Positions 9,901 through 12,900 of a DNA stretch of 64,000 bases are shown here, in pieces. Position 1 is the first letter of the stretch, and each line of letters begins with the position of its first letter. Made by a program: the position numbers. This DNA comes from Escherichia coli (GTDB taxonomy: Bacteria; Pseudomonadota; Gammaproteobacteria; Enterobacterales; Enterobacteriaceae), in NCBI RefSeq assembly GCF_030013205.1, contig NZ_CP122648.1, one strand, 5' to 3'.

Positions 9901-12900
9901 CATTACCGCCATCAATTGCTCACTCCCGGGGCGCGGTGCGTTGTCATCGAATAAATTGAGCTGCGCGACTCCCTGACTGAAGAAATCTCCCAGCATCACG
10001 CCCGCTTTTTGGTAGCGATGGCCCGCTTGCCAGATGGCATCCAGAGATCGCGTAGCGGCGTTAATGATATCCCTGCTGTCCTGAGTGGGCGTCAGCAGTT
10101 TTACCGACGCGCTATTGCCGTAATAAGGTTCATTAAGCGCAAATGGTGACGTCTTAATAAACGTGGAGATAAACCGACAATATTGATGCTCACTGCGAAG
10201 TTTTTCCGCCGCCCGGGCAGCGTAACTACAAATGGCCTGCCGCATCGACGGATAATCCGTGATGCGTTCACCAAACGAGCGGGAACAGATAATTTCCTGC
10301 TTCGTCGGTGCAAACTCTTCCAGTTGCAAACAGGGTTCACCGCGCAGTTCACGCACCGTTCTTTCGAGCACGACATTAAAATGTTTACGGATAAACCGGA
10401 TATCTGTATCCGCCAAATCGAGAACGGTTTTGATCCCCATCGCGTCCAGCTTTTTGCTGATCCGCCGTCCAATCCCCCAGACTTCATCCACGGGGAGAGC
10501 AGACATTAATTTACGCTGGCGTTCCAGATTTGATAAATCCACCACCCCACCCGTCTGCCGCTGCCATTTTTTTGCCGCATGATTGGCAAGCTTAGCCAGC
10601 GTTTTGGTCTGGGCGATCCCCACACCAACAGTAAGATGGGTACGTTGTAGCACCGTTGCGCGAATTTCTCTGCCAAGATCAGTCAGATCGCGACAATTAC
10701 GCACACCTGTCAGATCGCAGAATGCCTCATCAATACTGTAAATCTCGACGCGGGGCGATAATTCTTCCAGCGTCGACATCACCCGATTGCTCATGTCTGC
10801 GTAAAGCTCATAATTGCTGCTAAAGCAAACCACGCCACAGCGACGAAACAGATCTTTTTGTTTGAACCAGGGATCGCCCATTTTAACGCCAAGCGCCTTT
10901 GCCTCAGCGTTTCGGGCGATAACGCAACCGTCATTATTCGATAGCACAACCACTGGTTTACCCCATAAATCAGGGCGAAACACCGTCTCACAGCTGGCAT
11001 AAAACGCGTTTACATCACAGAGGGCAAACATCAGCGCATCGCCTTAACGACGTGGATCACCACACCAAAGACATCCAGCGTATCTTCGCTACTGATGGTA
11101 ATGGGTGAATATGCACTGTTCATGGGAATAAGCTGCACTGTCGGGCGTAGTTGCAATTTTTTCACCGTAAACTCGCCGTCAACAGCAGCGATGACAATAT
11201 CACCATGGCTGGCGGTAATAGCGCTATCGACAATCAGTAAATCACCGTCACTAATCCCACCGTCAATCATAGAATCACCACTTGCTTTGACGAAGTAAGT
11301 CGCGCTGGGATGCTGGATCAACAGTTGATTCAGATCGATGCGCTGTTCAACGTAATCTGCGGCCGGTGAAGGAAAGCCACACTGAACAAGATCGCTAAAT
11401 AGCGGAAAAGTCACAATTTCGCGGAGATCCGCAGGCTTGATAAACAACATAATAATCTGCCTGAAGTTATACTGTTTTTATATACAGCAGTCTGTTCTTG
11501 CCAGCAGATCAATACTGATTCAGGCTATCAATATTTGTCGCTGCATAGACTGCTGATTTTTCGTTCTCTTATCCTGTGCTCACGCGGCCTTCTGGCGACG
11601 ACGCTCATCCAGCAGAAATGAAAAATATCACCCGGCTAAAAATAGAATAGAAGCATTCGCCATAATGACATTAAACATTGTTTGATATTTATCATATTAA
11701 TAGAAATAAAGACATTGACGCATCTCGCCCGCCTAACTATGAATTAGATGAAGTAAAATTCATTAATAGTTGTAAAACAGGAGTTTCATTACAATTTATA
11801 TATTTAAAGAGGCGAATGATTATGACTGAAATCGTTGCAGATAAAACGGTAGAGGTAGTTAAAAACGCAATCGAAACCGCAGATGGAGCATTAGACCTTT
11901 ATAATAAATATCTCGATCAGGTCATCCCCTGGCAGACCTTCGATGAAACCATAAAAGAGTTAAGTCGCTTTAAACAGGAGTATTCACAGGCAGCCTCCGT
12001 TTTAGTTGGCGATATTAAAACCTTACTTATGGATAGCCAGGATAAGTATTTTGAAGCAACCCAAACGGTGTATGAATGGTGTGGTGTTGCGACGCAATTG
12101 CTCGCAGCATATATTTTGCTATTTGATGAGTACAATGAGAAGAAAGCATCCGCCCAGAAAGACATTCTCATTAAGGTACTGGATGACGGCATCACGAAGC
12201 TGAATGAAGCGCAAAAATCTCTGCTGGTAAGCTCACAAAGTTTCAACAACGCTTCCGGAAAACTGCTGGCGTTAGATAGCCAGTTAACCAATGATTTTTC
12301 AGAAAAAAGCAGCTATTTCCAGTCACAGGTAGATAAAATCAGGAAGGAAGCGTATGCCGGTGCCGCAGCCGGTGTCGTCGCCGGTCCATTTGGATTAATC
12401 ATTTCCTATTCTATTGCTGCGGGCGTAGTTGAAGGGAAACTGATTCCAGAATTGAAGAACAAGTTAAAATCTGTGCAGAGTTTCTTTACCACCCTGTCTA
12501 ACACGGTTAAACAAGCGAATAAAGATATCGATGCCGCCAAATTGAAATTAACCACCGAAATAGCCGCCATCGGGGAGATAAAAACGGAAACTGAAACAAC
12601 CAGATTCTACGTTGATTATGATGATTTAATGCTTTCTTTGCTAAAAGAAGCGGCCAAAAAAATGATTAACACCTGTAATGAGTATCAGAAAAGACACGGT
12701 AAGAAGACACTCTTTGAGGTACCTGAAGTCTGATAAGCGATTATTCTCTCCATGTACTCAAGGTATAAAGCTTATCACATTTAAAAATACAGACGTTTTT
12801 TAAAGATTGAGAGTTACCTGTTGATAATAAGGTATCGGGTAACTCTCATTATGACAGAGCGCTTTCAAAAACAGGGCTACGAAATGGCGAGTATCCAGAC

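Follow-up and report, generated by a model that had tools for sequence, protein, structure and literature searches.

The inverted repeat in the spacer where hlyE and ycgN of Escherichia coli converge is probably the protective terminal stem-loop of a ycgN mRNA whose transcription is ended by Rho. It occupies positions 12808-12848 of the window, the whole 64-kb stretch of E. coli DNA analysed here, and the decisive evidence for its role is provided by published maps of transcript 3' ends, in which the ycgN mRNA stops just past this hairpin. An earlier note on the same DNA had recorded an 11-bp repeat with a 19-bp spacer in this intergenic region, and its placement was accurate to the base; its idea of a structured RNA element is supported by the ycgN mRNA, which stops 6-7 nt beyond the hairpin and is encoded opposite to hlyE, the gene that had been stressed. 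The hairpin is an ordinary transcript-end structure and not a new regulatory element. The features concerned are:

11822-12733, plus strand: coding sequence of hlyE (hemolysin E), convergent with ycgN
12650-12800, minus strand: approximate zone of Rho-dependent termination, ycgN-sense (PMC7815308)
12796-12807, minus strand: steady-state ycgN mRNA 3' end from published maps, with dominant K-12 positions 1229414/1229415 corresponding to window 12802/12801 (PMC10687069 Supplementary Data 2, 3 and 4)
12801-12939, minus strand: ycgN 3' UTR of about 140 nt, with the hairpin at its end (PMC10687069 Supplementary Data 4)
12808-12818: left arm of the repeat, TGAGAGTTACC, equivalent to K-12 1229408-1229398
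12819-12837: 19-nt spacer, which is the loop, with polymorphisms G12831A and T12825C in other E. coli
12838-12848: right arm of the repeat, GGTAACTCTCA, with a G12838A allele in 237 records
12940-13386, minus strand: coding sequence of ycgN (YcgN family cysteine-cluster protein), whose transcript ends at the hairpin

The repeat reads TGAGAGTTACC (12808-12818), tgttgataataaggtatcg (19 nt) and GGTAACTCTCA (12838-12848), a perfect 11-bp pairing with arms that are 100% complementary and contain 5 G/C in 11 positions (45% GC). It sits within the 206-bp hlyE-ycgN spacer, bounded by the stops at 12733 (hlyE, plus strand) and 12940 (ycgN, minus strand), 75-115 nt beyond the hlyE stop codon. On the plus strand the stem is followed by TTATGACA, without a T-run, and on the minus strand the tail is ATCTTTAAAAAA. 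The K-12 counterpart, at 1229368-1229408, is identical in sequence and carries no annotation. The window is collinear with K-12, to which coordinates were converted via a gap-free alignment, and the 261-bp stretch of it used as a query is 100% identical to E. coli strain 7/2.

The hairpin exists and is stable in both orientations. In ycgN-sense RNA an 11-bp stem folds with -17.1 kcal/mol (z = -5.0) and the loop contains a 4-bp mini-helix (GAUA/UAUC), while in hlyE-sense RNA the stem reaches 13 bp through a U12819-G12837 wobble and a G12820-C12836 pair, leaving a loop of 15 nt and a folding energy of -19.5 kcal/mol (z = -4.5). The exact repeat pattern was reproduced in none of 100 shuffles, and among 57-nt windows with a GC content of at most 40% the site ranks in the top 0.5% for stability on the plus strand and in the top 1% on the minus strand.

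The 3' end itself was mapped by TRS in two independent K-12 RNAtag-seq datasets. For the ycgN strand, the authors' own LB data show a 3'-end peak that spans 1229409-1229420 and has 1229415 as its dominant position, with adjusted p values of 1e-7, 2e-16 and 3e-6 (PMC10687069), and a second dataset, most likely a TRS re-analysis of the Barsheshet RNAtag-seq, places it at 1229408-1229418, dominant at 1229414 (PMC10687069, Supplementary Data 2, first sheet). The end was assigned to ycgN as 'Distant primary' with a 3' UTR length of 140 (PMC10687069 Supplementary Data 4), a class defined by zero 3' ends within the first 100 nt past the stop, and the fold displayed for it is exactly this hairpin; coverage of the 3' UTR is close to that of the coding sequence, and the region carries no flag as a 3'-UTR-derived RNA (PMC10687069). 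Positions 1229414/15 are the sole 3' end mapped for ycgN and lie 6-7 nt beyond the stem base (1229408), with the tail AUCUUU/A, on the strand opposite hlyE. An mRNA 3' end just past a stable hairpin identifies the repeat as the terminal stem-loop of ycgN, and this end was already present in the supplementary table, where it was never singled out. Against a protective stem-loop, the curated Term-seq list of Adams et al. holds no 3' end at the hairpin site (PMC7815308) and SMRT-Cappable-seq has no entry for it.

Treatment with bicyclomycin points to Rho as the factor that ends transcription beyond the hairpin. A Rho termination region was reported on the ycgN strand (the K-12 plus strand) with its most significant position at 1229494 (PMC7815308), where the Rho score is 4.7 (p = 4e-12) and upstream/downstream reads are 103/27 in untreated cells and 169/208 with bicyclomycin (PMC7815308 Supplementary file 2). 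The downstream/upstream ratio thus rises from 0.26 to 1.23 around a position that corresponds to window 12722, about 80 nt past the ycgN mRNA 3' end and antisense to the 3' end of hlyE. Termination close downstream of the hairpin is bicyclomycin-sensitive and, in these low-resolution data, did not behave as Rho-independent; the Rho score is derived from 800-nt counting windows, a coarseness that weighs against the protective reading, and bicyclomycin-derepressed antisense promoters could contribute to it. The hairpin has no U-rich tail and Rho-dependent read-through occurs downstream of it, both of which are features of protective stem-loops.

In the mechanism proposed here, the repeat would work as RNA transcribed from the minus strand of the window, in which a stem-loop of 11 bp and -17 kcal/mol would form the last part of the ~140-nt 3' UTR of the ycgN mRNA. 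RNA polymerase would pass the hairpin and, within ~100 nt, be released by Rho at a site antisense to the hlyE 3' end, after which 3'-to-5' exonucleases would trim the transcript back to the hairpin and leave an end 6-7 nt past the stem (AUCUUU). We infer that the ycgN 3' end is made by trimming and not by termination at the hairpin, and that the hairpin protects the ycgN mRNA.

Such an arrangement has precedent among Rho-dependent E. coli transcripts, whose sharply defined steady-state ends lie immediately beyond stable stem-loops; these have no U-tract and shield the RNA from PNPase and RNase II (Dar and Sorek, PMC6061677). The ycgN hairpin resembles these protective stem-loops in its stability, in the missing U tract, in the 3' end a few nucleotides past its base and in the bicyclomycin-sensitive termination downstream, but its loop, at 15-19 nt, exceeds in length the terminator-like loops of that class and counts against membership. 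Protective 3' hairpins usually precede a mild C enrichment. On the ycgN strand C does not outnumber G in the first 100 nt downstream (15 C and 18 G), which may also speak against the assignment; over 200 nt the counts are 35 C and 31 G. The sole stem variant seen in E. coli, G12838A, is favourable, since it retains a G-U pair in ycgN-sense RNA and gives a C-A mismatch in hlyE-sense RNA; as a single event it is given little weight.

REP and BIME elements are extragenic palindromes that stabilise mRNA 3' ends, and REP elements, which occur in hundreds of copies, have a high GC content. By analogy, the repeat, an extragenic palindrome at a transcript end, could block 3' exonucleases, but unlike REP/BIME it is AT-rich and single-copy and matches no Rfam or repeat family. 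At a permissive threshold Rfam 15 gave only a chance-level mir-2076 match at the repeat (19.3 bits against a gathering score of 90, E = 2.1). The many copies or mobile homologues expected of REP, ERIC, MITE or IS-end sequences were likewise not found, the repeat being single-copy.

The best-surviving alternative, which we consider possible yet rather unlikely, is that the hairpin acts as a weak, non-canonical intrinsic terminator of ycgN, perhaps a bidirectional one that serves hlyE too, with release at AUCUUU and Rho only catching read-through. The mapped end, 6-7 nt from the stem in a short U-containing tail, is also where such a terminator would release, bidirectional terminators are common between convergent genes, and the hlyE-ycgN spacer contains no other terminator. 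A terminator scan of this spacer, however, returned zero terminators, the hairpin included. Classical d-scores are -54.2 on the ycgN strand and -33.8 on the hlyE strand (tails AUCUUUAA on the minus and UUAUGACA on the plus strand), against +11, +50 and +60 for canonical hairpins scored likewise as controls. Intrinsic terminators have a short loop of ~3-8 nt on a GC-rich stem followed at once by a U-rich tract, whereas the ycgN hairpin has arms with 5 of 11 G/C, a loop of 15-19 nt, a tail with only 3 consecutive U and a negative score on both strands, and read-through is released by bicyclomycin. The earlier note was right that the loop is long for a simple terminator and that a T-run is missing. 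Moreover, reads downstream exceed those upstream in the presence of bicyclomycin (208 vs 169), which leaves little room for efficient Rho-independent release.

A second ycgN-sense hairpin was noted on the minus strand at 12873-12919 (GGGGCU...AGCCCU, 34-nt interior), followed by GUUUUU (U5 at 12867-12871). It was considered as a ycgN terminator and rejected: its d-score is -55, no 3' end maps less than 100 nt from the ycgN stop, and it is apparently unused.

Somewhat less likely still is that the repeat is incidental, having arisen by chance or in the rearrangement that joined hlyE and ycgN, without a selected role, and merely stalls exonucleases. The window contains 7 perfect repeats (arms of at least 11 bp, spacers of 3-40 nt, 64 kb) whereas 200 dinucleotide shuffles averaged 0.56, a roughly twelve-fold enrichment which implies that most such repeats in the window are non-random and argues against an incidental origin. 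By chance, ~0.4-0.6 repeats of the counted kind are expected per 64 kb, and those with long spacers have the largest chance-attributable share; one repeat per 64 kb is near the chance level for long spacers, and the anatomy is therefore suggestive but not conclusive alone. The six other perfect repeats counted lie at 32534-32571 (14-bp arms, 10-nt spacer, without a T-run), 43034-43084 (11-bp arms, 29-nt spacer, a second long-loop example), 1423-1451, 23035-23061, 44222-44246 and 61927-61953. Those at 23035-23061 (d-score +11) and 61927-61953 (d-score +60, minus strand) are canonical terminators by score.

Of 5426 complete E. coli genomes, 5410 retain the repeat, each as a single copy, and 4349 records are identical over 51 nt, a degree of maintenance that speaks against an incidental repeat, as does its coincidence with the only ycgN 3' end on the maps. 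The rest of the hlyE-ycgN spacer is equally invariant, so that conservation inside the species does not discriminate between the readings. Three variants occur, two in the loop (G12831A and T12825C) and G12838A at the inner end of the stem, with no compensatory change in the stem among them; the stem-weakening allele, in 237 records, and the lack of covariation agree with an incidental origin. Both sampled G12838A strains and both sampled loop-variant strains carry a truncated hlyE. In all four of these variant strains (L003-L006: FEX669, 10034292-3, 30602_1#109 and N64) the gene is annotated as a truncated pseudogene without its N-terminus, and the hlyE-ycgN spacer and the repeat are kept despite the truncation. 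A small ORF at 12851-12934 (plus strand, 27 codons) was rejected as non-coding: it lacks a ribosome-binding site and is cut short by a TAT-to-TGA change in the strains with truncated hlyE.

Outside E. coli the repeat is absent from 80 of 80 other enterobacterial ycgN loci, including those of E. albertii, E. whittamii, Citrobacter, Klebsiella and Salmonella. In Escherichia sp. MOD1-EC7003 the first ~66 nt past the ycgN stop are homologous, and the similarity does not reach the repeat, breaking off 22 nt away at window ~12870. The flanks of hlyE in Salmonella and Trabulsiella also lack it. Salmonella hlyE is found in a different context, beside osmC, with an E. coli-like flank (judged by eye) of only ~25 nt past the stop, and Trabulsiella hlyE is followed by a textbook bidirectional A-tract/hairpin/T-tract terminator with a d-score of +50. 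This restriction to E. coli, the abrupt end of homology in MOD1-EC7003 and the absence from other hlyE flanks count in favour of an incidental repeat. By these comparisons the repeat is part of an E. coli-specific AT-rich junction. Covariation analysis is impossible for a repeat found in E. coli alone, and without conservation elsewhere or compensatory substitutions selection for the structure is not demonstrated.

Conservation had been proposed in the earlier note as a check, together with a search for further genomic copies. The repeat is near-universal in E. coli and missing elsewhere, and the search returned one place per genome. Lack of conservation and of other copies, which the note named as refuting its idea, thus largely holds outside E. 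coli, and a species-specific transcript-end hairpin is not thereby refuted.

The region 3' of ycgN differs from one Escherichia species to another (L007-L011, locus position 3448 onward). In place of hlyE, the interval from ycgN to umuD holds 1.1-1.9 kb of unrelated DNA in E. whittamii and Escherichia sp. E1V33, the content is different again in E. albertii and in an atypical 'E. coli' representative, and the adjacency of hlyE and ycgN appears specific to E. coli proper. Trabulsiella guamensis shows a third context, in which hlyE is flanked by a DUF333 gene on one side and a pyruvate:ferredoxin oxidoreductase gene on the other (L090 3412-3500).

A broader interpretation that joins these observations is doubtful, and we offer it only tentatively. 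In it, a hairpin born in E. coli beside hlyE, a gene gained by horizontal transfer and silenced by H-NS, would set and protect the 3' ends of the two mRNAs that meet there, ycgN and hlyE, and, together with Rho, would insulate hlyE and then C0299/umuDC from ycgN read-through; it could also dock a protein that binds 3' ends, such as ProQ.

That the repeat is the DNA operator of a dimeric regulator, as the earlier note had proposed in naming a candidate regulator-binding site, or an operator overlapping the promoter-like TTTAAA-18-GATAAT (12799-12828), is very improbable: perfect 11-bp arms with centres 30 bp apart (~three helical turns) and a -10 hexamer placed inside the loop would suit it, but the repeat has one copy per genome and sits between two gene 3' ends, away from promoters, half-site near-matches in the window occur at the chance rate (10 vs 9.95 expected), promoter-like sites are not enriched (3 vs 2.5 expected), and the literature on hlyE with SELEX and on SlyA covers only the hlyE-umuD promoter side, with no binding found there for the hlyE-ycgN spacer. 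The CsrA literature concerns the hlyE 5' UTR only.

Neither viral contigs nor phages gave a significant counterpart: the repeat had no match in the former and no significant match in the latter. In PLSDB, fourteen 'plasmid' records (H66-H79, e.g., NZ_OL790696.1, 4.8 Mb) contain the hlyE-ycgN spacer and are the only plasmid matches; all fourteen are predicted to be non-mobilizable, range from 91 kb to 4.9 Mb, and are probably mislabelled chromosomes or chromosome fragments. Descent from a mobile element was rejected, as no partner repeat was found at the other boundary of the hlyE segment and no plasmid, phage or viral homologue was found.

A metagenome scan returned 38 matches, comprising 31 from the E. 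coli locus, 3 unrelated ones with other spacers and 4 related contigs. The related contigs (L119, L123, L124 and L130, from ERZ1740054-61; e.g., L124 271-317) are ORF-poor, have 35-39% GC and are probably eukaryotic. They have both 11-nt arms in common with the E. coli site, set 19 nt apart as they are there, together with 8 more bases of the flanks; a 19-nt exact match to the site, AAAGATTGAGAGTTACCTG, is present in three of the four (18 of 19 in L123), and loop and flanks differ. This match is regarded as an unexplained coincidence without biological link, with a roughly estimated chance of ~1e-3. Metagenomic HlyE proteins that had seemed 'divergent' were set aside as ordinary E. coli or poor assemblies. 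In GCA_029782595.1 (L096 1502-2100) the spacer carries scattered base errors in the repeat (TGTGATTTACC) and is followed by a second partial spacer copy and the end of ycgN; this contig, from a low-quality assembly, looks like an assembly artefact or chimera.

The protective role preferred here for ycgN may extend to the opposite strand. In K-12 hlyE is associated with H-NS and has been called cryptic. When it is expressed, the plus-strand hairpin (13 bp, -19.5 kcal/mol) could plausibly play the same part for its mRNA, as suggested by the stronger predicted hlyE-sense fold and by the downstream excess of C over G on that strand (23 C and 18 G in 100 nt; 49 vs 37 in 200 nt).

For ycgN, an uncharacterised gene, the outcome is a defined 140-nt 3' UTR and a probable Rho-dependent terminator. 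More generally, where a stable hairpin lies between convergent genes and has no T-run, the 3'-end structure of a Rho-terminated mRNA is a better reading than a regulator site, and the gene relevant to such a hairpin may be the one on the opposite strand. For hlyE (ClyA) the relevance is minor: when Rho is inhibited, ycgN read-through enters the gene antisense.

The hlyE-umuD spacer contains the small RNA C0299 at 11510-11588 on the minus strand (Rfam RF00119, 111.9 bits against a gathering score of 40). C0299 and ycgN share a strand, so ycgN read-through that escaped Rho would pass antisense through hlyE toward C0299 and umuDC.
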